DNA of 64,000 nt from Planctomycetota bacterium (GTDB taxonomy: Bacteria > Planctomycetota > UBA8108 > UBA1146). The notes under the pieces are model-generated. The model saw only the letters and a list, made by a program, of their open reading frames with translations, was not told where the DNA came from and ran no database searches. This document shows positions 17,213 to 34,805 of this stretch, one piece after another (positions within the stretch are counted from its first letter, which is position 1; each line of letters begins with the position of its first letter). The stretch covers positions 2,739-66,738 of the forward strand of contig JAYZBV010000015.1 in assembly GCA_036338595.1 (NCBI GenBank), in the 5' to 3' direction. Position numbers and translations under genes: made by a program.

Positions 17213-17231
17213 GTCTTCAGGAGTACCTTCG

Positions 17232-17978
17232 ATGCGCCACCGCGTTGCCGGAAAAAAGCTGAACCGTACGAGTAGCCACCGCAAGGCGCTCGCAAAGAAC
17301 CTGATGCGTGCCTTTCTCATCGAATGGCAGGGCAAGGGCCACATCGTCACGACTCGGTCCAAGGCGAAGTTCATCCAGCCGAAGATCGAGAAGTTGATCT
17401 CACTTTCGCGCAACAAGACGGTTCACAATGTTCGACGAGCCATGTCTCTCATCGGTGATAGAGATGCCGTTCGAGTGCTGTTCGATGAAATCGGTCCTTA
17501 CTACAACGAACGGCCAGGGGGCTATACCCGGGTGCTGAGGCTGGTCAAGCCTCGTCTAGGGGATGCTTCGATACGGGCCTATCTTGGCTATGTCCGCGCG
17601 GATGATGATTATCCTGAGGGCGACTGTCGAGCGAAGGATACCGTCGAGAGTGCTGCTACCGGGGAAGCAGTTGTCAGCGAAGAGACCCCCAGCGAGGAAA
17701 TCGTCAGCGAAGAGGTCGTCAGCGAAGAGGTCGCCAGTGAAACTGCCGATCCGGTTGCCAGTGAAGATGGCGATGCCCAGGGGGCCACAGCAGCGGATTC
17801 AGCCGCCGCAGAAGAGCCCGAATCTGGAGAGGTAGTGCCAGAGGCGCAAGACGAATCCGAATCCGCTGACGAGATCGCTGCAGAGAGTGACGATGCGTCG
17901 GAGTCCGCTGAATCGGAGGTCGAGGACTCCAGTTCCTCGGAGGAGGAGAAAGAATCTCCTTCAGATAAAGACCAGTAA
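17232..17978 (+). CDS. rplQ: 50S ribosomal protein L17 with ~120-aa acidic C-terminal tail
   Basis: MRHRVAGKKLNRTSSHRKAL, ERPGGYTRV, RLGDAS, followed by an E/S/A/D-rich tail. Confidence 0.97.
   Translation: MRHRVAGKKLNRTSSHRKALAKNLMRAFLIEWQGKGHIVTTRSKAKFIQPKIEKLISLSRNKTVHNVRRAMSLIGDRDAVRVLFDEIGPYYNERPGGYTRVLRLVKPRLGDASIRAYLGYVRADDDYPEGDCRAKDTVESAATGEAVVSEETPSEEIVSEEVVSEEVASETADPVASEDGDAQGATAADSAAAEEPESGEVVPEAQDESESADEIAAESDDASESAESEVEDSSSSEEEKESPSDKDQ
17673..17747 (+). repeat. Five degenerate 15-bp tandem units encoding xSExx in the rplQ tail
   Basis: gtcagcgaagagacc / cccagcgaggaaatc / gtcagcgaagaggtc / gtcagcgaagaggtc / gccagtgaaactgcc. Confidence 0.8.
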
Positions 17979-18342
17979 CCGCTGCTGAACCGCCTCCAGC
18001 CTTCCCTCGCTGATTTCCTCTTGCGGTCCGTGTGAGCCGATACGCTCATGATGATCGACTCCGGTCGCGGCAGGAGCCCGCCCCAAAGGGTTCCAGCGCT
18101 CTCCACATCCACGAATAGCGCACTGATCCGAGCAAATCCCTGCTCAATACCGTCCGAGGCACCCTCGATGGCACTGGTCAATCGTGCCTTACCGATGCTC
18201 GAGTCACGGCACCCTGGCGTGATATGTAGCGAACTTCCCGAGGGTCCTGGAGGCTTTCAGGGAGGGTAAACCTTGAGGATCATGGAGCAGTTGAAAGATA
18301 CTCAACGGATTCACCGGTTGAATATGATTGAGTAGCCAATCT

Positions 18343-18452
18343 TTGACATTCGAACAGTTGTGACTATTTTGAATTCGGCCTGATAACCATTACTTTGAGC
18401 GAACAAACACGACATTACATAGTTGACACGGCAACGCGCGTGTAGTCATATT
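18343..18452 (+). promoter_or_regulatory. Two tandem candidate sigma70 promoters upstream of the cohesin-dockerin array
   Basis: TTGACA (18343)-16-TATTTT and TTGACA (18423)-18-CATATT in an AT-rich intergenic stretch. Confidence 0.5.
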
Positions 18453-18631
18453 GTGTTGTGCTCAATGGGAGGTGTTCTGAGTCAGATCCCCAATAAGCAC
18501 CGGAATAGTATTTTCGAGAACCCGTCAGGTTTCTCGCGCTCTCGGAAAGGGGAGCCATGAGAAACGAATCCGAATGTTGAATTATTTTGGTTGGGCTTTG
18601 TTACACATTTTATTGACCAAGGGAGGAGATC

Positions 18632-20530
18632 ATGGATCTCTCAAATGCAGCGCCCAGGGCGCTCAAAATGCAGTGGATTACCGTTGCGCTCTTGTTCGTT
18701 TCCTCTTCGGTATTCGCAGGAGGTGGACAGTCGCTGAGCATCAGTAGTACCAGTACTCAGGGACTCGCACCGGCGAGCATGACCATCAGCCTGGATTCGA
18801 CAGATGCAACCGAGGGATATGTTCTCGCGGTTGCCTACGACGATTCGCAGGCGAGCGTTTCTGATCTCTCCACGGCAGGCACTGCCACCGAGAGTTCCAA
18901 CTCCGAGTTGGTCGTTCCGGAGATCCTCTCCGGCGGATTTACTCTTGGAGTGGTCGTGGACGCAGAACCTCCATTCGACGGGCATTCGATACCTGCTGGA
19001 TCGGGTCAGACTCTGGCTACGGTCACGGTGACCCCGATGGCGGTTGTGTCTGTTGAGACCGATATCGATTTCTCCTTCTCTGACAACACGCTCAACAATC
19101 CACCTCTGGCCAATATCATCGTCCAGGGTGGAATGTCGGTCGGTGCTGCAGATGGCCTGGGACTCAATGGGGGCACATTGACTCTCAATGTTCCTCCTCC
19201 GGCCACGATGAGCATCGAAGACGGTTCTGCAACTGCAGACGGAGAGGGCAGCACAGGCGATGCTCGAGTCATGCTCGATAACAGCCTCGGTGGCGTCCAG
19301 GGCTTCGTCACCGCCATTTCGCATGATCCTGCCGTGATCACCCTCGAGTCGATCTCCACCGGTGCGGATACAGATGCAGCTGGCGCCGAGTTCCAGATCT
19401 CGAACACCTATGCCAATGGTGGAACCTTTGGAGTCGTGCTCGATTTCTCGAGTCCCTTCGAAGGTCAGACGATTCCCGAGGGTAATGGCGTTCACCTGGC
19501 GAGTTACACCTACTCCTGCAACAACGAAAATATCTATGTTGAGGGAGAGCCTACACCCACCAGTGAGACCAGTGCCTTGACCCTCACAGATGGGACTCTC
19601 GGATCTCCGACGCTCGACAATGTGATCGTCGTGGGTGGTCTGTCGATTTCTCCGCTGCAGGAGAATGGCACCTTCACCTGTGATCCGATCGCCTTCCCTG
19701 CGGAGGACACGATTCTCTGGATGGAGACCGAGTTCGACGAGGGCTCCGGTAACTACGCCTACCACGGTCAGACCGGAGACCTGTGCTTCTTCTATGCCGA
19801 CGAAGACGATTACATCCAGGGCTTCACCTTCACCGTCTGCTACGACTGCAATCTGACAATTCATGAGGACTCCTGGGAGTTCAACGGATCGATCCTGGAT
19901 CAGGTCGGTGTCGAGTACACCGCGGTACAGGTTGATGACGACCCCGATGACGGAGACGGCTGCGAACTGGTTGTCGCGCTGCTTCTCGACGCGCTACCGC
20001 CTTTCGACGGCCAGACACTTCCGCAGACGATGTCCACCAGCGGCAACTCCGCAGATGGTCGTCTGTTGGTCGGCAAGATGCGAATCACCGTCGATATGGA
20101 TGCTGAGTGTAACGAGGATCAGTTGATCGAATGGTGCAACGACATCAACGGCACCGGGGATGTGAATCTCTACAACAACGTGGTCATCGACTTCGAATCG
20201 CTCCAGATCTACGAGCGCAACGACACTCTGGTGCACGTCGTGCCGGAAGAGATCTTCCAGCGTGGCGACTGCAACAGCGACGACAAGGTCGACCTGGCTG
20301 ACACCGCAACAATGCTTGCGAACCAGTTCAATGGACTCGATATCCTGTGTCCTGATGCCTGTGACTCGAATGATGATGGTCATCTGAACATGGCGGACGC
20401 TGTCCACCTGCTCAACTGGCTCTTCAAGTTCGGAGATACACCGCCGGCGCCAGGCCCCCTCGAAGACGGGCCGGATGCTACTCAAGATGACACGCTGCCA
20501 GTATGTGACAGCGACGATACGAACTGTTAG
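18632..20530 (+). CDS. Secreted type A protein A1: three cohesin-like domains plus a C-terminal dockerin-like domain
   Basis: Signal peptide ending SVFA; three repeats of G[FY]xxxxx[YH]D..G[FT]TLGVV.D..PF.GQ.I..N.[IV]V; tail FQRGDCNSDDKVDLAD..DACDSNDDGHLNMAD..LF..PPAPGP; GGGAGGAG ribosome-binding site. Confidence 0.8.
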   Translation: MDLSNAAPRALKMQWITVALLFVSSSVFAGGGQSLSISSTSTQGLAPASMTISLDSTDATEGYVLAVAYDDSQASVSDLSTAGTATESSNSELVVPEILSGGFTLGVVVDAEPPFDGHSIPAGSGQTLATVTVTPMAVVSVETDIDFSFSDNTLNNPPLANIIVQGGMSVGAADGLGLNGGTLTLNVPPPATMSIEDGSATADGEGSTGDARVMLDNSLGGVQGFVTAISHDPAVITLESISTGADTDAAGAEFQISNTYANGGTFGVVLDFSSPFEGQTIPEGNGVHLASYTYSCNNENIYVEGEPTPTSETSALTLTDGTLGSPTLDNVIVVGGLSISPLQENGTFTCDPIAFPAEDTILWMETEFDEGSGNYAYHGQTGDLCFFYADEDDYIQGFTFTVCYDCNLTIHEDSWEFNGSILDQVGVEYTAVQVDDDPDDGDGCELVVALLLDALPPFDGQTLPQTMSTSGNSADGRLLVGKMRITVDMDAECNEDQLIEWCNDINGTGDVNLYNNVVIDFESLQIYERNDTLVHVVPEEIFQRGDCNSDDKVDLADTATMLANQFNGLDILCPDACDSNDDGHLNMADAVHLLNWLFKFGDTPPAPGPLEDGPDATQDDTLPVCDSDDTNC

Positions 20531-20579
20531 TGGAATTATTATCAGGAACTGGATGTTGGAATACCTGGAGGGATTCGGC

Positions 20580-21869
20580 ATGAGACTTATCAATACTGTG
20601 CTGGCGCTGCTATTCGTGGTTTCGACTGCGACTATTGCTGCAGGGCAAGATTATTCGTTGAGCATTTCTAGCGGGTCCATTCCTGACGGTGGTGGCGGAA
20701 GCCTCTCCTTTACGATGGACAACAATGGAGGTGAAATCGCAGGTTGGTCCTTTGGAGCCTGCAACGACACTGCTTTTCTCACCTGTACCGGAGCACAGGA
20801 CGGCTCCACTACCGCTACGGCGAAGAATGGTGGTCCTCCGGACTTCGATCAGATCGGAGTTTTTGACGAGGGCTTCACCGTCGGAGTGGTGATCTGTTTC
20901 ACCGGCTGCGCAACACTGGCGCCGGGAACCGGTTATGAGTTGAATACTGCCGACTACACCTGCAATCAGGAGGGAAGTACCACCGTATCGTATTGCGATA
21001 CCATCGGGTCTCCGCCTGTGGCGACCGTGGTCGTGGTGGATGGCGCTTCGATCGTCCCGGCCCAGAGCTCGGGCGATGTCGCCTGCATCGGAGTCCCCGA
21101 TCCAGAGTACACCTACTCTGCGGGGAGCACCTCTGCTGGTTACAACCCCGCTGACGGAAACGCCAGTGCATCGGTTGACATCAGTATTGCAGAGACAGAC
21201 AACAGCGGCCTGGGAGCTCCATTTCCCAACGATACGCAGGGCTTCTCGATGGGCCTGGGTCATAGTTCCGAAGTGACGGCCACTGCGGTGAACCTGTCCT
21301 TGCCATTCGAAGCTGACTTTGGAGAGGTCTCCATCTACTCAGAAGGTTGGACCATCGGAGTGGTGTACAGCTTCACTGGCGACAATGTGCTGGCATTCGA
21401 TAATGAAACGACCGTGATCACCGCAGATTACGAGACTGGCGGTAGCATGGCCGGGAATGAAACCGGGGCTACAGCTTCGTTGAGCTGGAATGGTGGTCTC
21501 GGATCACCTGCTGTGGCCAATGTGGTCGTGGTGGGTGGAGCTTCCCTAGATGCGGTCCTTTCCGATGGAAGTATCACGCTCAACCCGGTCGTGACGATCG
21601 ATTGGATTCGCGGTGACGCCAACAGCGATGACCGTGTCAATATCGGTGATGGAATCTGGATCATCAGCGAGTTGTTCCTGAATGGACCGGCGAGTACTTG
21701 CCCGATCTCCCGTGATGCGAACGATGACGGGGGTGTGGACGCTGCGGATGCAGTCTACGTCTTCACCTACCGCTTCCTCGATGGGCCGATGCCAGGGGCA
21801 CCGTTCCCCGATTGTGGTCAGACTTCGGGCCAGACGCCTGAGGACTGCTCCGATTCTGGCTGCAGCTAG
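20580..21869 (+). CDS. Secreted type B protein B1: two cohesin-like domains plus a dockerin-like domain
   Basis: Signal peptide; GWSFG.C..GFTVGVVICFTGC; FPNDTQGFSMG..GWTIGVVYSF; tail RGDANSDDRVNIGD..DANDDGGVDAAD..PFPDCG. Confidence 0.8.
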   Translation: MRLINTVLALLFVVSTATIAAGQDYSLSISSGSIPDGGGGSLSFTMDNNGGEIAGWSFGACNDTAFLTCTGAQDGSTTATAKNGGPPDFDQIGVFDEGFTVGVVICFTGCATLAPGTGYELNTADYTCNQEGSTTVSYCDTIGSPPVATVVVVDGASIVPAQSSGDVACIGVPDPEYTYSAGSTSAGYNPADGNASASVDISIAETDNSGLGAPFPNDTQGFSMGLGHSSEVTATAVNLSLPFEADFGEVSIYSEGWTIGVVYSFTGDNVLAFDNETTVITADYETGGSMAGNETGATASLSWNGGLGSPAVANVVVVGGASLDAVLSDGSITLNPVVTIDWIRGDANSDDRVNIGDGIWIISELFLNGPASTCPISRDANDDGGVDAADAVYVFTYRFLDGPMPGAPFPDCGQTSGQTPEDCSDSGCS

Positions 21870-21901
21870 GTCGAAGAAACTACCGTCGATCGGTAAATTC
21901 G

Positions 21902-21941
21902 AAGTCACCTCGCCAATCTGATTGGCGAGGTGACTTTTTTT
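21902..21941 (+). terminator. Intrinsic terminator after B1
   Basis: aagtcacctcgccaatc/gattggcgaggtgactt inverted repeat followed by a T run. Confidence 0.9.
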
Positions 21942-22522
21942 GCTTTCCTCCAGAGGGCATCTCCCAGGATCTGGCCGCATCTACCCTCCCCTCGGATTCT
22001 GGCCAGGAGTCATAAACACCCCTTTTTCAACGTGTTGTGGTTTCGCCAGGGCGATCCGTTCTCTCCACCTGGACTCCGATAACCTCGCCAGCCGTACTCT
22101 GGACGCCTCTGAACTAGTTATTTGAGATCACCCGAACAGGCATTACTGTATGTGAAGAGTTTCATGACTATCAGGACTATCCGGTAGTCGTGACGAGGTC
22201 CGATGAGTTGTCGATGGACCGATAACCCCCAGAGGTGGGTCTACGACTGGGTGTGTAGAGGCTGTGTTGGGATACCGATGCAGTCGACAGTGCAGAGTGC
22301 GAAATATGTTTTCGAGAGTCGAGGAGGGTCTGGAGGAGTTGTGCCGTCGTTGCATTCCGCAACGCGCAGGGCACTGTCACCGTAGATCTCCTGAGTTTAC
22401 CGGTCCTGGGCACTGAGCAGGGACCAGCGTCACTGGGCTGCTAATGAAGAGTAAGAATCTTGTGAGTTGCCACCGCCTGGAACAGCGAGGCGGGATCACA
22501 TTCCTTGAGGAGGGGTATATTG

Positions 22523-24379
22523 ATGCGTAGTTTCATAACGCTGTCGGTCACCGGAGTGCTCATTCTATTCAGCACCATCGTGGCGGGACAGAATTCCATC
22601 ACCATCACCGGCGGAGGTCAATCGGTCCAGGGACTCGGCTCTTCGAGTTTCGGAGTCGACATGACCAATGACGCAGAGGTGGAGGGGTTCGTCGTGGCCG
22701 TGAGCTACGACAACTCAGCGGTGGCGATCACCGATCTATCCACTGCAGGGACCGTGACCGAGGCAGCCGGGGCAGAACTGGTCGTCCCAGAAATCCTTGG
22801 CGCAGGTTTCACGCTCGGTGTTGTGCTGGATGCCACGGCACCCTTCGATGGCCAGACCATCGCGGTGGGTGCCGATCAGAACATCTGCAATTTCACTGCC
22901 CAGTCCGTGATCGTCCTGGAGTCCTCCGATCCGGATGTCGTGACCGGGTTTGATTTTGTCGATGGATCCTTCAATTCACCTGTGCTGGACAACATCCTGG
23001 TACAGGGTGGGCAGGCGATCGGTGTCGCAGCAGGGTTGATCCTCAATGGCGATACCGCGGCGATGTCCATCGGAGCTCCCCCTCCGGCAACCCTGACCAT
23101 CGAGGACACGACTGCAGATTCGAGCGGTATCGGAAGTGTCAGGATCTTGCTCGAAAATTCAGGGGAATCTCAGGGCTTCGTGCTTGCCATCGCACATGAC
23201 GGTTCCGAGTTGACCCTCGAGGCCATCGATCTGGCTGGAACGGAAACCGAGGCAGTCGGTGCCGAGTTTTCATCGATCAACACCTACACTGATGGGGGCA
23301 CGATCGGAGTCGTACTCGATTTTGGCGCTCCATTTGACGGCCAGACCATCGGTGCCGGGGTCGACGTGCATATTGCGAACTACAATTACTCGGACACCGT
23401 CGACATCTATTTCGAGGGGGACCCGATTCCGGCTGACCAGGTCGCAGCACTCGGTTTTTCTGACGGGACCTTCGGAAACCCAGCCCTCAACAATGTCGTG
23501 GTGACTGGCGGTCTCTCCATCGCCCCCGACCTGAATGACGGCACCTTCACGACGCCACCCAACGCGATCCCTGCCGAGGATACGGTGTTGTGGATGGAAG
23601 CTGAGTTCACCGGCGGCGATGCGACGGTCGGTGAGACGGGTGCACTATGCTTCTACTATGCGGATGAAGATGACAACATTCAGGGAATGACGATGACGGG
23701 TTGCTACGATTGCGACCTGACAGTCGGATCCACCTGGGATTGGGGCGGATCGATCGTTGAAGAGGTCGGGGTCGAATACCTCGCCGTTCAGATCGATGAT
23801 GATGGTGCCGATGGGGACGGCTGCGAACTGATGGTCGCCATCCTCCTCGATGCCTTACCTCCCTTCGAGGGTCAGACCTTGCCTCAGACGGGTGATCTCA
23901 GCGAAGGACGCCTGCTGATCGGATGCCTGTCCGTGACGGTTGATGACACCGCCGAATGCGACACCACCCTGGAAATCAACTGGTGTAACGGGATCAACGG
24001 CAATGGAACAGTGAGCCTCTACAACAACGTGGTCATCGATTTCGAGTCGATTCAGATCTACGAGCGCAACGACACATCGGTAAATGTCGTTCCCGAGGAG
24101 GTCTTCCAGCGAGGAGACTGCAACAGTGATAACAAGGTCGACCTTGCGGATGCCGCTGCGATCCTGGCCAATCAGTTCGGAACCTTTGATATCAACTGTT
24201 CCGATGCCTGCGACGTCAATGACGATGGATTGCTCAACATGGCGGACTCTGTCGCGGCGCTCAACTACCTCTTCAAGGATGGTGCGGCACCCCCAGCCCC
24301 TGGACCCGACGAAGTTGGTCCAGACGAAACTGAGGATTCACTGCCAGGCTGCGACAGTGACGATACGAGTTGCGCGTAA
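22523..24379 (+). CDS. Secreted type A protein A2: three cohesin-like domains plus a dockerin-like domain
   Basis: Paralog of A1 (ELVVPEIL.GFTLGVV, LLDALPPF, LYNNVVIDFES, FQRGDCNSD); GAGGAGG ribosome-binding site. Confidence 0.8.
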   Translation: MRSFITLSVTGVLILFSTIVAGQNSITITGGGQSVQGLGSSSFGVDMTNDAEVEGFVVAVSYDNSAVAITDLSTAGTVTEAAGAELVVPEILGAGFTLGVVLDATAPFDGQTIAVGADQNICNFTAQSVIVLESSDPDVVTGFDFVDGSFNSPVLDNILVQGGQAIGVAAGLILNGDTAAMSIGAPPPATLTIEDTTADSSGIGSVRILLENSGESQGFVLAIAHDGSELTLEAIDLAGTETEAVGAEFSSINTYTDGGTIGVVLDFGAPFDGQTIGAGVDVHIANYNYSDTVDIYFEGDPIPADQVAALGFSDGTFGNPALNNVVVTGGLSIAPDLNDGTFTTPPNAIPAEDTVLWMEAEFTGGDATVGETGALCFYYADEDDNIQGMTMTGCYDCDLTVGSTWDWGGSIVEEVGVEYLAVQIDDDGADGDGCELMVAILLDALPPFEGQTLPQTGDLSEGRLLIGCLSVTVDDTAECDTTLEINWCNGINGNGTVSLYNNVVIDFESIQIYERNDTSVNVVPEEVFQRGDCNSDNKVDLADAAAILANQFGTFDINCSDACDVNDDGLLNMADSVAALNYLFKDGAAPPAPGPDEVGPDETEDSLPGCDSDDTSCA

Positions 24380-24496
24380 CAAGGGATCTGGAAATTGCCC
24401 GGGAGCAGCGGTGCCCTGGCAGTGCGAACAGGTGAGTAAGAAATAACGGAGTCGATGGCAGTGCCCATCGCGAACAAAAGGGAAAGTGACTGAATT

Positions 24497-25852
24497 ATGA
24501 GGAAGAACAGTAGTCTCTGGATGGCCATCGCTGTCCTGGGCATCTCCATCGCCTCGACCGCCGATTATGTGGTGGCTGGCGGGGGAGCCACATACAGCAT
24601 GAGTAGTGGCTCCACGGCTGCGGGCGGCACGATCACGCTGTCGGCAACCCTGGATAACGGTGGAGGAGATATCAGTGGTTGGTCCTATGGAGTTTGCCAT
24701 CCTGAGGCGATAGCAACAGCCTCCAATATTGGCGATGGTGATGGAGCTGCCAACAGCACATCGACGGTCAATAACGGTGCTCCAGCGAGTTTCGACGAAA
24801 CCTCCATCTATGCCGGCGGCTGGACTCAAGGTGTGGTCATCGACTTTGTCGGTTGCTGCGTGGTCGCCTCGGGAACGACTGGATTCCTGATGGCCACTGC
24901 CGATTACACGGTGGACACCGCAGCCGCACCGGGAGATTTTTCGGTCGATTATTGTGGCGGAACACTGGGATCTCCCGTGGTGGCGAATGTCGTCGTCGTG
25001 AATGGAGCTTCCATAGCGCCGATGGTGGAGAACTCTGGCACCATCACCGTGATCGAGGTCCCTGATCCCGAGTGGAACTACATCGGTGGGACCTCTGCCG
25101 GTAACAACTATCCGGCATCGGCTGGCATCGGCGGAATGTCGGTTGCTGCAGGCTTTTCAATCCAGGAAAAAGACAACAGTTCCCAGGGCGCAAATTTCCC
25201 CAACGAAACACAGGGGTTCTCGATGGATTGCGGGAACGATGGAGCCCTCGTGACTCCCACTGGCGTCACGATGAGCCTCGGTTTCGATGCGGATTTTGCG
25301 GAATCCAACCTGTACGCAGACGCATGGACCCTCGGAGTCGTCTACGACTTTGCCGGTGGAGTCACCGTTACCTACGAAACTGCTTCAGAGGTGGTGAGTG
25401 TTGCCTATGAGGGCGTTTCTGGCGCACTCGCTGGAGTAGAAGGGGCGACCACGACACCCCTGGCCTGGAATAACGACACCGGATCGCCACCTGTGGTCAA
25501 TGTGGTGGTGTTCGGAGGAGGAAGTTACCCGGCGAATTTCAACAATGGATCGATCGAGTTTGTTGGAACCGTGACCAATGACTTCCAGCGTGCGGACTCG
25601 AACGATGATGGAACAGTCAACATTTCAGACATCATCTGGTTGCTCGCGGAACTCTTCAATGGCGGACCCGTGACCGATTGCGCCAAGGCAGATGATTCAA
25701 ACAACGACGGCTCGGTGGATGCGGCTGATGCCGTCTTTATCGCAACCTACATCTTTCTCGGCGGTGCTACACCGGCAGCTCCGTTCGGGACCTGTGGATC
25801 GGACCCGGGACAAACTCCCGCAGATTGTGTGAGTTACAACAGTTGCCCTTAG
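24497..25852 (+). CDS. Secreted type B protein B2 (most divergent B)
   Basis: Signal peptide; GWSYGVCH, FPNETQGFSM, tail FQRADSNDDGTVNISD..DSNNDGSVDAAD. Confidence 0.78.
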   Translation: MRKNSSLWMAIAVLGISIASTADYVVAGGGATYSMSSGSTAAGGTITLSATLDNGGGDISGWSYGVCHPEAIATASNIGDGDGAANSTSTVNNGAPASFDETSIYAGGWTQGVVIDFVGCCVVASGTTGFLMATADYTVDTAAAPGDFSVDYCGGTLGSPVVANVVVVNGASIAPMVENSGTITVIEVPDPEWNYIGGTSAGNNYPASAGIGGMSVAAGFSIQEKDNSSQGANFPNETQGFSMDCGNDGALVTPTGVTMSLGFDADFAESNLYADAWTLGVVYDFAGGVTVTYETASEVVSVAYEGVSGALAGVEGATTTPLAWNNDTGSPPVVNVVVFGGGSYPANFNNGSIEFVGTVTNDFQRADSNDDGTVNISDIIWLLAELFNGGPVTDCAKADDSNNDGSVDAADAVFIATYIFLGGATPAAPFGTCGSDPGQTPADCVSYNSCP

Positions 25853-25868
25853 ACGTGCTGTGAGTCCT

Positions 25869-25890
25869 CGAGCCGACAGGGGTCGGCTCG
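25869..25890 (+). other. GC-rich stem-loop after B2, no T tract
   Basis: cgagccgac-aggg-gtcggctcg. Confidence 0.6.
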
Positions 25891-26048
25891 GAAGACGGAT
25901 CAGTGCACTGTGTGAATCGAAACTGTGTGAAGCGAAGTAGTGGACCAGGTATTTTTGAAATTGGAGAAACGGCCAGTTGGAAATAGGTAGCACAGGAATG
26001 GATTCCTTGCTCTTGTTTCCGGGCTCGAATGAAAACAGTTGAGGAGAG

Positions 26049-27470
26049 GTGGGTGTGATGTTGAGTATTGTATCTAGGGGAGGAACCGTTATTTCGGCAT
26101 GGTGCATCGTTATTCTGTGCATGACGGTGATCAGTGGTTCCCTCGTATTTGGAAATGGTGATCCCAGTACCTTCACTGCAGAGAGCACCTCTGTGGCTTC
26201 TACGGGTGGTGGAACCGTAAGAATCATGATGGATAGCGGTTTGGATGTTCAGGGGTTCGTGGTCTCGATGTCGCATGATCCGGCGATGGTCACTCTCACT
26301 GGCATCGACATCTCAGGTTCAGATACCGAGGCTGCCAATGCAGAGTTCGTGGTCCCCACTGTTTACTCAGATGGCGGCACCCTGGGTGTGGTCCTCGATT
26401 TCAATGCTCCATACGATGGTCAGGTGATCCCGCAAGGTGCTGGAATCCATGGTGCGAACTACAACTACAGTTGTAATAATGCGGTGTTGTACTTCGAAGG
26501 TGATCCGGTTCCACCGTCTGAAACTTCCGCTCTCACATTTGTAGATAACGTCTACGGAAGTCCAACCCTGGAAAATGTCTCGGTCAGTGCAGGCATGTCG
26601 GTATGGCCGTCCCTCATCGATGGAACCTTCACCTGTGAGCCGGTGGCGATTCCTTCCGAAGATACAGTGCTCTCGATGGAGACAGAATTCGACGGTTCTC
26701 AGGGCAACTACGCCTATCATGGACAGACCGGGTCGCTCTGCTTCTACTACGCAGATTCAGATGACAACATTCAAGGAATGACGATGACCGTCTGTACCGA
26801 CTGCGATCTGACCATCGGGTCCGAGTGGGACTGGGCCGGGTCGATCGTCGAGGAGATTGGCGTCGAGTACCTGGCAGTCCAGGTCGATGGTTCTGATACC
26901 GATGGAGATGGGTGTGAGCTGGTCGTTGCGATCCTGCTCGACGCCTTGCCGCCTTTCGAGGGCCAGACCCTCCCGCAAACAGCTGACCTCAATGAGGGAA
27001 GACTGCTGATCGGTTGCTTGTCTGTGACCGTGGATGACACGGCAGAGTGTGACACGGCTCAGGAGATCAACTGGTGCAACAACATCAACGGCACTGGTAG
27101 CGTGAATCTCTATAACAACGTGGTCATTGATTTCCAGTCGATTCAGATTTACGAGCGAATCGACACGTCCGTGTTTGTCGTTCCGGAAGAGGTCTTCCAG
27201 CGCGGTGACTGCAACAGTGATGACACTGTCGATCTTGCTGACGCAGCGTCGATTCTTGCCAATCAGTTCGGATCCTACGATATCGAATGTGCAGACGCTT
27301 GCGATGCCAATGATGATGGGCTACTGAACATGGCAGATTCGGTGTACCTTCTGAATTACCTGTTCAAATTTGGCGATGTACCGCCAGCTCCGGGCCCGAC
27401 CCACGATGGTGCGGACCCGACAGGCGATACACTTCCAGTCTGTGACAGTGACGATACGAATTGTGGATAG
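26049..27470 (+). CDS. Secreted type A protein A3, short form: two cohesin-like domains plus a dockerin-like domain (start uncertain)
   Basis: Aligns by eye to domains 2-3 and the tail of A1/A2; hydrophobic N-terminus; first domain absent. Confidence 0.78.
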   Translation: MGVMLSIVSRGGTVISAWCIVILCMTVISGSLVFGNGDPSTFTAESTSVASTGGGTVRIMMDSGLDVQGFVVSMSHDPAMVTLTGIDISGSDTEAANAEFVVPTVYSDGGTLGVVLDFNAPYDGQVIPQGAGIHGANYNYSCNNAVLYFEGDPVPPSETSALTFVDNVYGSPTLENVSVSAGMSVWPSLIDGTFTCEPVAIPSEDTVLSMETEFDGSQGNYAYHGQTGSLCFYYADSDDNIQGMTMTVCTDCDLTIGSEWDWAGSIVEEIGVEYLAVQVDGSDTDGDGCELVVAILLDALPPFEGQTLPQTADLNEGRLLIGCLSVTVDDTAECDTAQEINWCNNINGTGSVNLYNNVVIDFQSIQIYERIDTSVFVVPEEVFQRGDCNSDDTVDLADAASILANQFGSYDIECADACDANDDGLLNMADSVYLLNYLFKFGDVPPAPGPTHDGADPTGDTLPVCDSDDTNCG

Positions 27471-27488
27471 AGCATTTTATTGGTAAAG

Positions 27489-27533
27489 GAAACCGGGTCG
27501 TTTTCAGCAATTAGCTGGAACGACCCGGCTTTC
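27489..27533 (+). other. Long stem-loop between A3 and B3 (attenuator or stability element)
   Basis: ccgggtcgttttcagc-aatta-gctggaacgacccgg followed by cttt. Confidence 0.6.
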
Positions 27534-27601
27534 AAGTAACGGTCTTGCGCTTTTCTGTTTCGAAAAACAGGCGGCGAGTCCAGGAAGAGGGTGACGTGAC
27601 C

Positions 27602-28882
27602 ATGAGAGTTTTATTTGTACCGGTATTCTTGCTGATGACCGTATGTGTCACAGGGCAAGATTACTCACTCTCTGTTTCCAGTGGGTCCATCCCTGACGGT
27701 GGCAGTGGTAGCCTCTCTATAACCCTGGACAACAATGGCAGTGATGTCGCAGGTTGGTCTTTCGGGGTCTGCAATGACACGGGGTTTCTCACCTGCACGG
27801 GAGCTGTGGATGGCTCCACGACGGCTGTTGTGAAAAATGGTGGTCCGCCCGACTTCAACCAGATCGGTGTCTTCGATGAGGGCTTTACTGTTGGTGTCGT
27901 GATCTGTTTCACAGGTTGCGCAGTCCTCGCTCCAGGGACCGGCTATGAAATCAACGTAGCTGACTACACCTGCAATCAGGAGGGAAGTACAACAGTTGCG
28001 TTCTGCGACACGTTGGGTGCACCTCCGGTGGCCACGGTAGTTGTCGTCGATGGTGCTTCGATTGTTCCAGCCCAGAACTCGGGGGATGTCGAATGTATCG
28101 GAGTTCCCGATCCAGAGTACACCTACTCCGCAGGTAGTGCCTCGGCCGGGTACAATCCCGAAGATGGGAATGCCAGCGCCTCTGTCGATATCAGTATCGC
28201 AGAGACAGACAACAGCGGACTGGGAGCTCCATTTCCCAACGACACACAGGGCTTCTCGATGGGCCTGGGTAATGGTTCAGAGGTGACGGCAACTGCGGTG
28301 AATCTGACGTTGCCATTCGAAGCTGATTTTGGAGAGAGCAACATCTACCCCGAAGGTTGGACCATCGGAGTGGTGTACAGTTTCACCGGTGGAAATGTGC
28401 TGGCATTCCCTTCTGACACAACCGTGATCACCGCAGATTACGAGACCGGCGGAAGCATGGCCGGGAATGATACGGGGGCTACAGTTTCATTGGCCTGGGA
28501 TGGTGGTCTCGGATCACCGGCAGTGGCCAATGTTGTGGTGGTGGGAGGAGCTTCGATCGATGGACTCCTTTCCGATGGCAGCATCACCTTCAATCCGGTG
28601 GTGACGATCGACTGGACCCGCGGTGACGCCAATAACGACGGCATTGTCAATCTGGCTGACGGGATCTGGATCATCAGTGAGTTGTTCGTCAATGGCGCTG
28701 CGAGCACATGCTCCATCTCGAGGGATGCGAACTCGGATGGCATGTTTGATATCGCAGATCCGACCTACATCATCATGTACCGCTTTGCAGGGGGACCAGC
28801 GCCAGCCGCTCCCTTCACCGATTGCGGTCAGGTCGATGGCCAGACTCCAGCGGATTGCGACGCTTCTGCCTGCGCTGGTTGA
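27602..28882 (+). CDS. Secreted type B protein B3 (close duplicate of B1)
   Basis: Shares long identical peptides with B1, e.g. ASASVDISIAETDNSGLGAPFPNDTQGFSMGLG and TTVITADYETGGSMAGN. Confidence 0.8.
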   Translation: MRVLFVPVFLLMTVCVTGQDYSLSVSSGSIPDGGSGSLSITLDNNGSDVAGWSFGVCNDTGFLTCTGAVDGSTTAVVKNGGPPDFNQIGVFDEGFTVGVVICFTGCAVLAPGTGYEINVADYTCNQEGSTTVAFCDTLGAPPVATVVVVDGASIVPAQNSGDVECIGVPDPEYTYSAGSASAGYNPEDGNASASVDISIAETDNSGLGAPFPNDTQGFSMGLGNGSEVTATAVNLTLPFEADFGESNIYPEGWTIGVVYSFTGGNVLAFPSDTTVITADYETGGSMAGNDTGATVSLAWDGGLGSPAVANVVVVGGASIDGLLSDGSITFNPVVTIDWTRGDANNDGIVNLADGIWIISELFVNGAASTCSISRDANSDGMFDIADPTYIIMYRFAGGPAPAAPFTDCGQVDGQTPADCDASACAG

Positions 28883-28924
28883 TCAGCAATAGTGGATTCC
28901 GGCGACCCGATGGAGGTCGTCAGA

Positions 28925-28971
28925 GACGAGATCACTCGGCACCTTCGGTGCCGATGTGATCTCGTTTTTTT
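28925..28971 (+). terminator. Intrinsic terminator after B3
   Basis: acgagatcactcggcac-cttcg-gtgccgatgtgatctcgt with a TTCG loop and a T run. Confidence 0.9.
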
Positions 28972-29381
28972 GAATTGTGCGCCAACCGGTGGCAGCGAGC
29001 CAGCTGGCGTCACTGGTCGCCCTCTTCTCGCCCCGGTGGGCAGGGTGGGAACAGGCGGTGTCGGATCGGGGTTTTGAGGCGATCCAGGCGGGGGTTGTCG
29101 CCCATCGCTGGTGATCAATACAAACAAGATGTATATGCAGGTCCGGCGACGCAATAACCGGCCAAATTCGGGCTGCATACAGGCTCTCTGGGCCTTAGGA
29201 TGCCGCATTGGGACCACGGAGGCCTCAATACTGGCTGACGAGACCGGTCTTCCTTAGACGGGGACTGTGATCGGGAGCTGATAGACATATTCATCCTATC
29301 GGCCGTCACTACTTGGCGGTGGAGATGACCAATCGATGTGGGTCAGCCAGATCTGACCATTGAGAGAGAAGGAACCCGCTC

Positions 29382-30677
29382 ATGAACAAGTTGAACGCCC
29401 TGTTGGTGCTGCTGCTCTTTTCCAGCACACCCGTGCTTGCCCAGGAATACGTGCTATCGATCAGTGGTCCTGCGACCGCAGCGTTGGGTGGCGACCTGGA
29501 CCAGTCCGCGAACTTTGATAACAATGGAAGCGCGGTTGCGGGTTGGTCCTATGGTGTCTGCCACGATTCTGCGTTGATGACCATCAACAGCGCCGTGGAT
29601 GGAGCGACGACCCTGATCGTCAAGAATGGCAGTCCGCCAGACTTCAACCAGATCCAGGTTTCGACCCAGGGTTATGCAGTCGGCGTTGTCATCTGCTTCA
29701 CAGGTTGTGCGGTGCTGGATCCTGGCACCGGATACGAACTCAATGTCGCCAACTACACCGCGGATGTCGAGGGTATCGCCGCTTCAGGCTACTGCGACAC
29801 GATCGGATCACCTCCGGTGGAGACGATTATCGTGGTCGGTGGAGCATCCGTGGTTCCAGATCAGTCGGGTACTACGGTCGAGATTCTCGGGGTTCCACCG
29901 GTTCCAGACCCGGAGTTCGTTTACTCCGTTCCGGATGTGGCGGTCAACTATGACGGCAACACAGAAGAAGCCTCCTTCAGTGCCGGCATCGAGATCTCGG
30001 AGGTGGATCACAGCGCCAGTGGAGCGGTCTTCCCCAACGAGACGCAGGGCTTCTCGATGGGACTCGGCCACGACAACTCCCTACTCGAATCTACAAATGT
30101 CGAGGTCACATTGCCCTTTGACGCCGATTTCGCCGAGAGTCAGATCTATTCAGGAGGCTGGACGCTCGGATGTGTCTACAGCTTCACGGGAGGGCAAACG
30201 CTGGCATTTGATAGCGCTGTCGAGGTCGTGGTCGCGGATTATTCGTCAGTGGCTGGTGCACTCTCGGGTGCTACAGGGCCGACCGCTACAGACCTGACCT
30301 GGGATAACACGCTCGGGTCTCCTCCGGTCGAGGGTGTTGTCGTGGTCAATGGAGCGTCCCTGACTCCGACCTTTGACGATGGAACCATCACGATGCAGCC
30401 AGTCTTCGACACGCCTTTCATGCGGGGCAACTGTAACGGTAACAGTGGCGTCGATATCTCCGACGGCATCTGGATGCTTCAGGAACTGTACCTTGCGGGA
30501 CCCAGTGGCACCTGTGCAGAAGCCTGTGATGCCAATGCAGACGGCTCCTACGATATGGCAGATCCGATGCATGTGATCTACTGGCGCCTGCTGGATGGAC
30601 CTCCTCCGGCAGCTCCTTTCCCCGATTGTGGTGCGGTCGCCGGTGCCGATTGTGATGCGGCCCGTTACTGCCCCTAG
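29382..30677 (+). CDS. Secreted type B protein B4 (no upstream type A partner)
   Basis: Signal peptide ending VLA-Q; GWSYGVCHD, VVICFTGC, FPNETQGFSMGLGHD, FMRGNCNGNSGVDISD..EACDANADG. Confidence 0.8.
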   Translation: MNKLNALLVLLLFSSTPVLAQEYVLSISGPATAALGGDLDQSANFDNNGSAVAGWSYGVCHDSALMTINSAVDGATTLIVKNGSPPDFNQIQVSTQGYAVGVVICFTGCAVLDPGTGYELNVANYTADVEGIAASGYCDTIGSPPVETIIVVGGASVVPDQSGTTVEILGVPPVPDPEFVYSVPDVAVNYDGNTEEASFSAGIEISEVDHSASGAVFPNETQGFSMGLGHDNSLLESTNVEVTLPFDADFAESQIYSGGWTLGCVYSFTGGQTLAFDSAVEVVVADYSSVAGALSGATGPTATDLTWDNTLGSPPVEGVVVVNGASLTPTFDDGTITMQPVFDTPFMRGNCNGNSGVDISDGIWMLQELYLAGPSGTCAEACDANADGSYDMADPMHVIYWRLLDGPPPAAPFPDCGAVAGADCDAARYCP

Positions 30678-30728
30678 CAGCAGAGGAAGGTCCTGAAGTC
30701 CACGGACTTCCCGGGCTTCGCTCGATGC

Positions 30729-30770
30729 AAGCGAGCCCGAAGCCAGCCGGCTTCGAGCTCGCTTTTTTTT
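30729..30770 (+). terminator. Intrinsic terminator after B4
   Basis: aagcgagcccgaagcc-agcc-ggcttcgagctcgctt followed by a T run. Confidence 0.88.
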
Positions 30771-31289
30771 GATCTGCATCGCCTTGCCCTGCTACTTCCT
30801 CTGATCTGTCCCTGCTGACCCGCATCGAGGCAGAGACTCCCATCTGGACCTCATCATCGGTAACAAATACCGAGGTCCGGCAGCAATTGCCGCAAATCCT
30901 CGATCGATACGACGGAATCCTTCGGCATGAGGGGCGAGCTAGCCACGCGGGTAAGTTTGTAAACGCTGTTGTCTATAGACAGGATTGACAATGAGTGATA
31001 CGGTCGAGGTTCGAGGACAGGAGTCCCGACACGACTCCCCAGCACCACCGGATTCAAACCCGGCATGTCCTACCTCTTCCTGCGCCACATAACCGGCAAT
31101 TGTTGTCGGGCTGATCGGTGGATCTGCTCTCCCCTGGAGCGATTCCTGTGCCGCCTGACTTGTTTACATACATTTTGTTAATTCCCCCCCTTTATCGGAG
31201 TTGTTCCGTGAGGACAGGACCAGGGAAGAAAGGCCCCCCTGACCGACTGGCAACTTCGAAGTGTCCCCAGGAGACGAGGAGAGATAGTG

Positions 31290-33122
31290 ATGAACCGCAG
31301 TCTCAAGCGCCTTCGCAGCGCACTGCTCGCGGTACTTTTCACCGTGATCGGTACCCATGCCTTCGCACAGAATTCACTGACCATCACAGATGGACAGTCG
31401 GCAGGACTCGCTTCCGAGACATTGAGCGTCCTCATGGATGCCGATGATTCGGTCGAGGGTTTCGTTCTAGCCATCACCTTTGACAGTGCCTTGCTGTCGG
31501 TGAGCGACATTGTCGCAGGATCTGCTACTCTTGCAGCTTCTGCAGAGTTGATCGTTCCGGAAACTCTTCCGGGCGGTTTCACGCTTGGAGTCGTTGTGGA
31601 TGCGACTGCACCATTTGACGGCCAGGAAATATCTGCCGGTACGGATCTGCAGATTGCGGCCTTCACGCTCACACCCCAGACCATCGTGACAACGGATACT
31701 CAGAGCGCCGTTGAGTTTTCAGACGGTGTTTTGAACAATCCGCCGCTGTCCAATCTGCTGGTGCAGAATGGTCAGAGTATCGATGCCTCCAGTGGCCTCG
31801 GACTCAACAACGGAACGATGACTCTGCTTCCTCCTCCTCCTGACAGCATGCGCATCGAGTCGATTTCGTTCGATTCCGATTCCTCGGGTGCGGCTCGCGT
31901 TCTGCTCTCCAACTCCAGTGGAGCAGTTCAGGGATTCGTTCTCGCTGTTGCACATGATTCGGCAGTGGTGACACTCCAGGGGATCACCCTTGGTGCAGAG
32001 ACCCTCGCTGCCGGCGCTGAACTGGTCGTTCCTGAGTTGTACTCCAACGGTGGAACTCTTGGAGTGGTGCTCGATTTCGAGAGCCCGTTCGATGGCCAGA
32101 GCATTCCGACAGGAGATGACAACCACATCGCCAGTTTCAGCTACTCGTCCAACTCGGTCATCGAGAATCCGGACCCATCGGTATTCACTTCTGTCGACCT
32201 CGTCGACAACCAGCTCGGAAGCCCCTTGCTGGACAATGTGATCGTGGTTTCGGGCCTTTCCATCAGCCCCTCTCTTGAGGGCGGAACCCTGGAGTTGCTG
32301 GGAATCACGATCCCGGTCAACGACACGGCGTTCTACATCGGTCAGCGGGACTTCCCGGAGACCGGTACCAATGGTGGACTGGGTTTCCCCGGCCAGGAGA
32401 TCGAGTTCTGTTTCTTCTACAGCGATCCGAACGACAACATTCAGGGTGTCCAGATGGCCGTCTGCTACGACGACCTGATTCTGATCGACGGTACCTTCAC
32501 CATTGAAGGTTCCATCGCTGACGAACTGGGTGCTGAATTTGTCAACTACCAGATCGATAACGATGACAACGACGGTGACGGCCGCGAGCTGGTCGCCGGT
32601 ATTCTCATGGACGCTCTTCCACCCTTCGAGAACCAGCAGCTCCCTTCCACGGTCGAGCCGCTGATGATCGCCTGCGTGCAGGCTGAAGTTGACAGTGGAG
32701 CGGCTTGTGGTGATACGTTCAGCATCGATTTCTGCGACGGAATCAATGGAAACGGCATGGTCCCGATCAACAACCTCGTTGTTATCGAGTACCAGTCGGT
32801 TCAGTCCTTCGAGCGCTACGGTGCCACCTACGAGATCATTCCAGTTCCCGCTTTCCAGCGTGGCGACTGCAACACCGATACGAAGGTCGACCTCGCCGAC
32901 GCAGCCACTGTGATCGCCAGCCAGTTCCAGGGATACGAGGTCGGATGCCTCGACGCCTGTGACGCCAATGACGATTCAGTAATAAACCTTGCAGATTCTG
33001 TTTACCTGCTCAACTTCCTGTTCAAGTTCGGTCCCACGCCTCCGGCGCCGGGTCCTTACACGCCGGGTGCTGACCCGACAGAGGATGACCTCGATTGCAC
33101 TCTTCCGGCGTCTTGTAACTAA
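31290..33122 (+). CDS. Secreted type A protein A4: three cohesin-like domains plus a dockerin-like domain
   Basis: Signal peptide ending AFA-Q; GFTLGVVVD, GGTLGVVLDF, MDALPPF, FQRGDCNTDTKVDLAD..DACDANDD; start is GTG 31287 or ATG 31290. Confidence 0.8.
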   Translation: MNRSLKRLRSALLAVLFTVIGTHAFAQNSLTITDGQSAGLASETLSVLMDADDSVEGFVLAITFDSALLSVSDIVAGSATLAASAELIVPETLPGGFTLGVVVDATAPFDGQEISAGTDLQIAAFTLTPQTIVTTDTQSAVEFSDGVLNNPPLSNLLVQNGQSIDASSGLGLNNGTMTLLPPPPDSMRIESISFDSDSSGAARVLLSNSSGAVQGFVLAVAHDSAVVTLQGITLGAETLAAGAELVVPELYSNGGTLGVVLDFESPFDGQSIPTGDDNHIASFSYSSNSVIENPDPSVFTSVDLVDNQLGSPLLDNVIVVSGLSISPSLEGGTLELLGITIPVNDTAFYIGQRDFPETGTNGGLGFPGQEIEFCFFYSDPNDNIQGVQMAVCYDDLILIDGTFTIEGSIADELGAEFVNYQIDNDDNDGDGRELVAGILMDALPPFENQQLPSTVEPLMIACVQAEVDSGAACGDTFSIDFCDGINGNGMVPINNLVVIEYQSVQSFERYGATYEIIPVPAFQRGDCNTDTKVDLADAATVIASQFQGYEVGCLDACDANDDSVINLADSVYLLNFLFKFGPTPPAPGPYTPGADPTEDDLDCTLPASCN

Positions 33123-33177
33123 CAACCGAACTAGGAACCCATAGAAAAGGACTTCCACACGGAAGTGGAGTAAGACA

Positions 33178-34482
33178 ATGAAAACAACCAAAGTTGCTCT
33201 CACCCTTGCCTTCGCGCTCCTGTTCGGAGCCCCGGCAATCGCACAGTACGACCTGACGCTCTCGAGCGCCTCCGGTGCCCCCGGATCCAGCGCAGACATT
33301 CAGGTCCTGCTGGACAACAACGGCGACGACATTCAGGGCTGGTCCTTCGGGGTCTGCCATGATGGCCTCGCTCTCAGCCTGACGGCTGTTGTCGACGGAG
33401 CCACCACCTCGACCGTGAAGAACGGTGGACCGCCTGACTTCAACCAGGTCAATGTGTTGGCTGCTGAGGGATTCACAGTCGGAGTTGTGATCTGTTTCAC
33501 AGGCTGCGCTGTACTGCCTACTGCCACCACCGGCAACGAGTTGAATGTCGCCACCTACGATTTGATCGGCGCCGCCGGAACCACCACGGATGTGGAATAC
33601 TGTTCCACCATCGGTAGTCCTGCGGTCGAGATCCTGGTCGTGGTCGGTGGACAATCGATTCTTCCCTCGACATCCTCCGGCACCATCGAGTTGGTCTCCG
33701 GACCGCCACCCTTCGACTTCAGTACTGGGGATTACTCGCAAGATTATGACGGACTCACTGGTGAAGCTACTGTTTCGATCAGCCCGATGATTACCGAGAA
33801 TCCGGATAACCCCGGTTTCCCCAACGATACCCAGGGATTTTCCATGGGTCTGTCGCACGATAGTGCAGTGCTGTCCCTTGACTCGGTGGTATGGAACAGC
33901 GCACTCGGATTTGACCCGGACTTCGCGAATGGGGACATGGGACTGGCCGGCGGCTGGACCATCGGAGTGGTGTACAGTTTCACAGGTCAGAATACTCTCG
34001 CCTTCGAGACTGCCACCGCGGTACTACTCGTTGACTACAGCACCGTTGCTTCTGGCCTCATTGACCTCGAGACTCCGACGACCACGCCACTGGCCTGGTC
34101 CAACGACCTCGGATCCCCCCCGGTTGTGAACATCGTCGTGGTAGGCGGCAACAGTCTTGATCCGTCTCTCACGGATGGAACTGTGACCCTGAACCCGACT
34201 TACGCTCCGCCTGACACTCCGTTCGTCCGTGGCAACTGCAACGGCGACGATCGTGTAGACATCGCCGACGGTATCTGGATCCTCAACGAGATGTTCCAGA
34301 GCGGACCCGCTGGCACCTGCGCAGAGGCGTGCGATGCCAACTCTGACGACATGACCGATACCGCGGATGCAATCTTCGTGATCAGCTACCGGCTGCTCAG
34401 CGGCCCGATGCCCACTGCTCCGTTCCCGGAGTGTGGAATCGAAGAGGGAGCAGACTGCGAATCTGCTTCCAACTGCCCCTAA
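33178..34482 (+). CDS. Secreted type B protein B5
   Basis: Signal peptide ending AIA-Q; GWSFGVCHD, VVICFTGC, FPNDTQGFSMGLSHD, FVRGNCNGDDRVDIAD. Confidence 0.8.
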   Translation: MKTTKVALTLAFALLFGAPAIAQYDLTLSSASGAPGSSADIQVLLDNNGDDIQGWSFGVCHDGLALSLTAVVDGATTSTVKNGGPPDFNQVNVLAAEGFTVGVVICFTGCAVLPTATTGNELNVATYDLIGAAGTTTDVEYCSTIGSPAVEILVVVGGQSILPSTSSGTIELVSGPPPFDFSTGDYSQDYDGLTGEATVSISPMITENPDNPGFPNDTQGFSMGLSHDSAVLSLDSVVWNSALGFDPDFANGDMGLAGGWTIGVVYSFTGQNTLAFETATAVLLVDYSTVASGLIDLETPTTTPLAWSNDLGSPPVVNIVVVGGNSLDPSLTDGTVTLNPTYAPPDTPFVRGNCNGDDRVDIADGIWILNEMFQSGPAGTCAEACDANSDDMTDTADAIFVISYRLLSGPMPTAPFPECGIEEGADCESASNCP

Positions 34483-34517
34483 GCGAGAGAATCCAGGCTC
34501 TCCTGGACACACGGGAA

Positions 34518-34552
34518 GGTCCGATGCGGTTCGCCGCATCGGACCGTTTTTT
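34518..34552 (+). terminator. Intrinsic terminator after B5
   Basis: ggtccgatgcgg-ttcg-ccgcatcggacc followed by gtttttt. Confidence 0.9.
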
Positions 34553-34613: not shown

Positions 34614-34805
34614 GGAGGTAGCCTCGGGGATCACGCAACCGCCGGGTCTTGCCTGACATTCCTTCCGGAAGCTCCATCGTCGACGACCAGTCGAGACGGC
34701 CTGTGGTGCCGTGTCTCCAGGTTGTCAGAACCCGGTTTCATTTCAACCGGGAGAACCACAGGGTTTGGTATATCCGAGCCCGAGAACGACGACGGAGGCC
34801 GATCG

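Follow-up and report, generated by a model that had tools for sequence, protein, structure and literature searches.

Conserved array of transcribed genes for predicted multi-cohesin scaffold proteins beside the ribosomal protein operon of an uncultured marine planctomycete

The window analysed here, a stretch of 64,000 nucleotides (positions 2,739 to 66,738 of contig JAYZBV010000015.1, forward strand), comes from the genome of an uncultured marine planctomycete (Planctomycetota bacterium, assembly GCA_036338595.1; 2.9 Mb, 88 % complete) and carries at window positions 18632-34482 nine scaffold-like genes, all on the plus strand and in the order A1 B1, A2 B2, A3 B3, B4, A4 B5 (Table 1). Their products belong to two families, A and B, in which tandem modules of cohesin fold are followed by a dockerin-like tail, and we infer that A and B probably serve as scaffold or adaptor proteins in a cohesin-dockerin assembly that is not a cellulosome and which would bind its components at the cell surface and be held there by an anchor. 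The feature itself is real, conserved and transcribed, with a distinct gene structure, recognizable folds and tail subtypes, an operon-like layout, counterparts in related genomes and cover by RNA contigs.

The identification of the modules comes from the structural models. AlphaFold (AF2) models of A2 and B4, built from alignments of 40 and 39 sequences respectively, begin with a signal helix and end with a helical tail, between which A2 has three beta-sandwich modules and B4 two; with predicted local distance difference test (pLDDT) values of 83-86, both models have the nine-stranded beta-sandwich of cohesins and can be superposed on solved cohesins. When the B4 model was compared with 48,161 representative chains the top 17 rows were all cohesins (Z 13.2-17.0), among them 4uyp_A for module 1 (Z 17.0, root-mean-square deviation 2.0, 135 aligned) and 4dh2_C for module 2 (Z 16.0). 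The best non-cohesin row is an adhesin domain at Z 12.3, and pilins reach at most 10.5. The three A2 modules match solved cohesins with Z 16.7, 15.8 and 14.9 (VIA-align), and for B Foldseek ranks first the cohesin dyad of ScaA (PDB 3l8q), an adaptor scaffoldin. At the sequence level, a paralogue on contig C19 of the same genome scores 26.3 bits with Pfam Cohesin (cut-off 24.1) and is also recognized by a profile hidden Markov model (HMM) of the A/B modules, and Cohesin is annotated in 17 % of the members of one Atlas neighbour cluster. As predicted from sequence and models, therefore, each protein has the make-up of an adaptor scaffoldin, with at least two cohesins and a terminal dockerin in a secreted, non-catalytic protein. 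The initial annotation of this DNA, which was made from the letters alone, had not recognized the N-terminal parts of A and B as cohesins, nor the dockerin tail as a module that is used throughout the genome.

The 21 modules of the array fall into five classes (c1, c2 and c3 in A; c1 and c2 in B), each of which forms its own clade across the paralogues. A3 is without the first module, which corrects the earlier description of the A set. By blastp, identities are 46-64 % among the A proteins and 41-79 % among the B proteins, and just 23-30 % between A and B over the modules; together with the clustering of the tails this bears out the earlier claim of separate A and B families, each with a dockerin subtype of its own. 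Relatives of both number in the hundreds in metagenomes, and the source organism, where named, is nearly always a member of the Planctomycetota. The public names of these relatives are 'hypothetical protein' or none, save for one B match called 'dockerin type I domain-containing protein'. A scan with NCBIfam found nothing for A2 or B4, and Pfam found in A and B no family beyond a weak Dockerin_1, hence no carbohydrate-binding module (CBM), X-module, SLH domain or sortase anchor.

All nine array tails contain two calcium-loop/helix repeats. At E <= 0.1, eight of the nine proteins have a match to Pfam Dockerin_1 (PF00404; gathering cut-off 22.9 bits), and scores at or above the cut-off are those of B2 (25.4 bits) and of the product of gene C, directly downstream of the array (27.8 bits). 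The B-family profile, searched against the PDB, matched dockerin chains only, and these weakly (E 0.0036-0.045). For a genome-wide census, a tail HMM was made from ten tails of the window and run on the six-frame open reading frames (ORFs) of the genome, where 142 ORFs have a dockerin-like tail, C-terminal in 136 of them and with the two-loop pattern in 121. Clustering separates six A-type tails (A1-A4 and two paralogues elsewhere) and about eight B-type tails from a general pool whose size varies with the cut (78-127), so that by sequence the tails of A type and B type make up two small subgroups within a genome-wide module. The initial annotation had given each type a tail motif of its own; that the A and B tails are different holds, although B2 reads D-I-I-W where D-G-I-W had been written. 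A structure prediction for the complex of A2 cohesins 1-3 with the B2 dockerin gave a score of 0.00 and a mark of 0.32, and this one combination, modelled without controls, bears neither way.

Across the genome, the module HMM picks out 42 ORFs that together hold 68 cohesin-like modules. What the tailed proteins may be was assessed by running Pfam on 62 of the 142, taken from 20 regions that were picked for holding several and hence not a random sample. They include two purple-acid or metallophosphatases, one thermolysin-type peptidase, four proprotein-convertase P-domain proteins, one endonuclease I with a lamin-tail domain, four di-haem peroxidases, two beta-helix proteins and giants with PKD, FG-GAP and HYR domains (HYR in one ORF); 35 of the 62 have no family at E <= 1e-5, and at the same threshold none of the 62 has a glycoside hydrolase family. 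Elsewhere in the genome, a second cluster on the minus strand of contig C19 (C19:45243-53295; L016) consists of a tailed ORF of 705 residues, an A paralogue and three B-like ORFs of 437, 468 and 299 residues, the 468-residue one being that which exceeds the Pfam Cohesin cut-off. A solitary A1-like paralogue (C71:19350-21455), 74 % identical to A1, has no B after it.

The layout of the array resembles a series of operons. The gene order is that of the initial annotation, which had also reported A-B gaps of 49-131 nt and spacers of ~200-650 nt ahead of each new unit; we measured gaps of 46, 117, 74 (or 131, from the likelier start of B3) and 55 nt and spacers of 635, 196, 499 and 609 nt. The strong terminators that had been described after B1, B3, B4 and B5, and the hairpin after B2, were upheld by stems, T-runs and folding energies (Table 1), with the hairpin and T-run lying 30-50 nt from the gene end after B1, B3, B4 and B5; none of the four A-gene ends in the array has a terminator. 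A scan for promoters and terminators found 14 weak sites where 11.8 were expected from shuffled sequence, which is no excess. Despite this, the placement of the terminators is not random: across 12 related arrays, terminator-like sites lie 3' of 36 of 52 B genes and of 2 of 36 A genes (one B at a contig end being left out, and the genomes being related, so that the counts are not independent). After B2, a terminator is present in none of the six arrays of the host genus, and A2-B2-A3-B3 may therefore be one unit. The GC content across the array is ordinary.

RNA contigs from four metatranscriptome runs of three studies (with seawater, hydrothermal vent and marine labels) were placed on the array at >=92 % identity; they stem from related strains, and runs X2 and X3 are one sample. 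Those of X2 cover all nine genes. The A1-B1 junction is bridged in X1 (18481-20999) and X3 (19714-21523) and the A3-B3 junction in X1, X2 and X3, and an X2 contig at 31206-34515 takes in A4 and B5 and ends 3 nt ahead of the terminator stem, although contigs of this kind cannot prove single transcripts and their depth is a poor measure of expression. Contigs from three studies start at 18467-18481, just 3' of the sigma-70-like match at 18423-18452, which is only a weak hint of a transcript start there. No RNA contig lies on 17668-18334, between rplQ and A1, and little on rplQ, although gaps in cover are not evidence of a transcript boundary or of relative expression. The earlier view that the cassettes are separately transcribed thus stands in part, in that units are closed after B and not after A and contigs bridge A1-B1, A3-B3 and A4-B5; it may give way at A2-B2-A3-B3.

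The A family was found at E <= 1e-30 in 26 of 31 related genomes (family f1, 18 of 18; family f2, five of five), and the zeros reflect this threshold and are no sign of absence, because the distant genome G030, without a match at E <= 1e-30, holds two A-like genes at 33 % identity. Eleven related loci were annotated. In the closest genome, G004, the order A1 B1 A2 B2 A3 B3 B4 is the same, with B4 cut by the contig end; other arrays of the genus differ in having two B genes after A3, or no A3, or a single-cohesin B after A1 (in two genomes; L001 16236-17090 and L002 2217-3071). Arrays of other genera read (B) A B-long A4 B5 C, or A B B B A B B A B C, or A B B A B C, where B-long is a B4-type gene with three cohesins (L004 5896-8076, L006 8213-10057 and L008 7933-9747, from two other genera). 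The last unit is of A4-B5 type in the f1 genera other than that of G009, and gene C follows the array in nine of 12 cases, these being all the arrays that reach their downstream end. Directly upstream of the array in the window is rpoA-rplQ, the end of the ribosomal protein operon (16223-17978), and the same neighbours precede the array in all three loci that extend far enough upstream (G004, G009 and G021; L003, L005 and L007), one of which belongs to another family of the order; the layout is thus one that recurs order-wide. Farther away within the class, G030 (L032) has two A-like genes and then seven B-like genes, and G028 has B-like arrays, one of them adjoining a C-like gene.

In the A tree an A4-type clade is set against a group of A1, A2 and A3, each of which is an orthologue clade across the genus, and the B tree has the clades B5, B4, B2 and B1/3. 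Gene-wide ratios of non-synonymous to synonymous substitution (dN/dS) against orthologues in three genomes are 0.06-0.24, after dropping rows in which the best match was a paralogue (L003 A4 and B5; L011 A1 and B1; L001 B1) and the row of rplQ, which has a poorly aligned tail; by this measure the paralogues are under purifying selection. The co-duplication of A and B that the initial annotation had proposed to examine by phylogeny is seen for A2-B2 and A4-B5, which match in membership and topology, and not for B1 and B3. These two, in the host genome and in G004, are sisters (support 96), whereas A1 and A3 lie in separate, well-supported old clades, so that in at least one case a B must have undergone duplication or conversion separately from its A. 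The DNA of B1 and B3 is 93 % identical over 84 nt (21179-21262 and 28189-28272) against about 77 % elsewhere, and this patchiness suggests gene conversion.

In the mechanism that we propose, the genes would be transcribed as A1-B1, possibly A2-B2-A3-B3, the single gene B4, and A4-B5, with an intrinsic terminator 3' of B ending every unit. The A proteins, predicted to be exported by a Sec signal peptide, would present three distinct classes of cohesin and an A-type dockerin, and the B proteins, also with a signal peptide, two further classes and a B-type dockerin, so that the cohesin modules would be five kinds of socket for calcium-binding dockerin tails. Roughly 125 general tails, those of enzymes and adhesin-like proteins, may plug into these sockets; the putative cargo among the about 140 tailed proteins includes phosphatases, peptidases, a nuclease, haem peroxidases and large adhesin-like proteins. 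The A-type and B-type dockerins would link A and B to each other or to anchors, for which the candidates are the lipoprotein-like C downstream and a single-cohesin lipoprotein on contig C84, and the outcome would be a multi-protein assembly, presumably at the cell surface. A more far-reaching version, which we regard as doubtful, has A and B as the main blocks of a self-assembling coat of these marine planctomycetes, where a wiring code would be made up of the five classes of cohesin and no fewer than three of dockerin, A and B would be daisy-chained into a lattice on lipoproteins (C and that on contig C84), and about 5 % of the proteome would be plugged in as exchangeable enzymes. The coat would then be a cohesin-dockerin 'exoskeleton', encoded beside the ribosomal operon and conserved class-wide.

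Several observations weigh against A and B as binding scaffolds. No protein of the array is matched by Pfam Cohesin (PF00963) at E <= 0.1; with Dockerin_1 seven of the nine score 14.6-21.1 bits, under the cut-off, and B4 has no match. A tail is also present in 39 of the 42 ORFs with cohesin modules, which is unusual for scaffoldins (two of the other three are cut at contig ends, and the third is that on C84). To our knowledge canonical dockerins have nothing like the Pro-rich stretch with at least two cysteines that follows the second calcium loop in about 120 of the 142 tails; this extension is conserved and may be a sorting signal or a disulfide knot. The tail could have a general sorting or calcium-binding role that is independent of the A/B cohesins, because distant genomes of the class (G026, G028 and G030) hold at least 150 matches to it each, with up to 422 first-look candidates. 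For gene C as a cohesin carrier there are weak leads rather than a finding, in two segments that are weakly cohesin-like: the A/B module HMM gives 4.9 bits only (residues 1320-1442), hhalign gives probabilities of 14.9 % (620-800) and 8.4 % (1310-1450) as the best of 11 segments, Atlas scores against cohesin-named clusters are 0.78, and a PDB sequence search with C returned nothing relevant.

The main rival, which we consider improbable, draws on much of this. It takes A and B as subunits of a surface layer, sheath or fibre, in which the modules are rigid beta-sandwich spacers and the dockerin with its Cys-rich tail is a general calcium-binding domain for sorting or attachment that does not bind the modules. 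A tail found on 142 ORFs, and with at least 150 matches in each of three distant genomes of the class, with a conserved extension and on nearly all of the module-bearing proteins themselves, would suit such a domain; so would the place of the array next to the ribosomal protein operon and the A1-B1 RNA contigs, whose mean word depths reach 474, depth being the poor measure already mentioned. However, the fold matches are specifically to cohesins (Z 13-17, against at most 10.5 for pilins and other sandwiches, the one adhesin domain at 12.3 apart), each of the five module classes is conserved across the paralogues as expected of specific binding faces, and cohesin and dockerin modules occur together here as they do in known binding systems.

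The reading of the initial annotation, here taken to mean an obligate A-B heterodimer whose dockerins are orthogonal and cassettes that are surface isoforms between which the cell can switch, seems to us very unlikely. Some of what it was built on is sound: the A-type and B-type dockerins cluster separately, promoter-sized gaps and terminators lie between the units, contig depths differ between units within one run (again a poor measure), and in 12 arrays of the host and its kin an A is directly followed by a B in 35 of 36 cases. The pairing, however, is a loose one: B4 has no A of its own, the arrays of relatives include A B B, A B B B and two A-like genes with seven B-like genes after them, and the A gene on C71 lacks a neighbouring B, so that the A:B ratio varies and solitary A and B genes exist. 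As to switching, nothing that we found in repeats, orthology, dN/dS or RNA cover points to the units as switchable ALTERNATIVES. There are no inverted repeats around the intergenic regions or promoters and no repeats within the intergenic regions, and neither the cassettes nor their flanks are nearly identical to one another, the DNA of the paralogues being mostly 60-80 % alike. Invertible promoters, silent cassettes, near-identical tracts and lineage-specific turnover, the marks of phase- or antigen-variable cassettes, were thus not found. The idea of alternative isoforms that switch is not supported, given the genus-wide orthologues of each paralogue, their low dN/dS and the cover of all nine genes in the single run X2, although population RNA data cannot exclude switching in single cells. 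The paralogous units are best read as subunits that are stable, are maintained at the same time and differ in their module and dockerin variants, and not as switchable alternatives. Least probable of all is that A and B are adhesins whose beta-sandwich modules bind external substrates (particles, polysaccharides or other cells), since, for all that they are secreted tandem beta-sandwich proteins beside a C with the Big_5, FG-GAP and TIG domains typical of adhesins, and that domains of pilins and adhesins turn up further down the fold lists (Z 9-12), no carbohydrate-binding or lectin family is found in A or B (Pfam; NCBIfam on A2 and B4) and the cohesin matches are clearly better than the adhesin ones.

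Taken as scaffold subunits, A and B come closest in architecture to the adaptor scaffoldins of cellulosomes, such as ScaA of Acetivibrio cellulolyticus, which are likewise secreted non-catalytic proteins with tandem cohesins and a C-terminal dockerin, encoded by clustered genes; the cohesins that single A and B modules match, at Z 13-17, are of types I, II and III. The differences are considerable, as the host here is a marine planctomycete of Gram-negative type, the scaffold proteins are without CBM, X-module, SLH domain or sortase anchor, their cohesins lie under Pfam detection, their dockerin has the extra Pro/Cys extension, and nearly every cohesin protein has a dockerin as well. The system is not a cellulosome, because there is no glycoside hydrolase in the sampled cargo (62 tailed ORFs) and no CBM. 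Cohesin- and dockerin-like modules that are non-cellulosomal, i.e. outside cellulose degraders, were reportedly described by Peer et al. in 2009.

A parallel in the same phylum may be the 'planctosome', which Andrei et al. (2019; PMC6461901) put forward as a hypothetical complex of cohesin and dockerin proteins in freshwater Planctomycetes; it is also non-cellulosomal, and the present system appears akin to it. The model, as outlined in that article, consists of one single-cohesin anchoring protein, one adaptor and two peptidases, and its domain repertoire recurs in the tailed ORFs of our genome (P-domain in four, lamin-tail in one, HYR in one and metallopeptidase in one). Lineage and architecture differ, however, and in the model as described there (PMC6461901) we see no tandem multi-cohesin A/B array, link to a ribosomal operon, set of five module classes or census of ~140 tails. 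Full-text searches of the literature, with subscription journals outside their scope, yielded no account of an A/B array of multi-cohesin genes, of its position behind the ribosomal operon or of the module and tail classes.

Seen as multi-cohesin scaffoldins, A and B would provide a concrete and testable list of the parts from which abundant, uncultured marine Planctomycetota may build a cohesin-dockerin assembly, and the much larger system lends support to the so far hypothetical idea of a planctosome. The apparent cargo of phosphatases, peptidases, nucleases and peroxidases, and not of cellulases, would bear on the processing of dissolved and particulate organic matter, and the five module and three tail classes could become new orthogonal connectors between proteins. 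The system should be of interest to those who study Planctomycetes, the turnover of marine organic matter and the engineering of cohesin-dockerin pairs.

Table 1. Genes and predicted transcription signals of the array and of gene C (positions in the window; module ranges in ORF residues)
Feature	Position	Strand	Description
Promoter match upstream of A1	18423-18452	+	Sigma-70-like: TTGACA, 18 nt spacing, CATATT
A1	18632-20530	+	Signal peptide, three cohesin-fold modules (35-194, 193-359, 362-545), A-type dockerin tail; fold inferred from A2 model
B1	20577-21869	+	Signal peptide, two cohesin-fold modules, B-type dockerin tail; fold inferred from B4 model
Intrinsic terminator after B1	21901-21944	+	17-bp stem and T-run, -28.4 kcal/mol
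A2	22505-24379	+	Signal peptide, three predicted cohesins (28-192, 193-352, 358-531), dockerin; AF2 model pLDDT 82.9
B2	24497-25852	+	Two predicted cohesins and dockerin; Pfam Dockerin_1 25.4 bits (cut-off 22.9)
GC-rich hairpin after B2	25869-25890	+	Without T-run
A3	26049-27470	+	Short A: two predicted cohesins (classes c2, c3) and A-type dockerin
B3	27545 (likelier start 27602)-28882	+	Two predicted cohesins and B-type dockerin; 79 % identical to B1
Intrinsic terminator after B3	28925-28973	+	Hairpin and T-run, -32.2 kcal/mol
B4	29382-30677	+	Solitary B; two predicted cohesins (20-172, 174-341) and dockerin; AF2 model pLDDT 85.7
Intrinsic terminator after B4	30729-30770	+	Hairpin and T-run, about -31 kcal/mol
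A4	31287-33122	+	Three predicted cohesins and dockerin; most conserved A, 74-90 % identity in L001, L002, L004, L006, L008-L011
B5	33178-34482	+	Partner of A4; two predicted cohesins and dockerin
Intrinsic terminator after B5	34518-34552	+	Hairpin and T-run, about -35 kcal/mol
C	34722-39824	+	1700 residues; lipoprotein-like signal, Big_5, FG-GAP, TIG, dockerin; directly after array

Gene C probably starts at residue 29 of its ORF, which gives the lipoprotein-like signal that ends in a cysteine; its dockerin is without the Cys-rich extension, and Pfam finds no CBM in it. The ORF on contig C84 (C84:4357-5811; L035) encodes a protein with a lipoprotein-like signal, three repeats in its interior and one cohesin-like module at the C-terminus but no dockerin, and is the only complete cohesin ORF of the genome without a tail; from these features it is a candidate membrane anchor. 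An Rfam scan of the window found no family. Farther along the window, Pfam at E <= 0.001 finds no family in three long ORFs, at 45576-46862 (428 residues), 57297-61442 (1381 residues) and 61464-62726 (420 residues).

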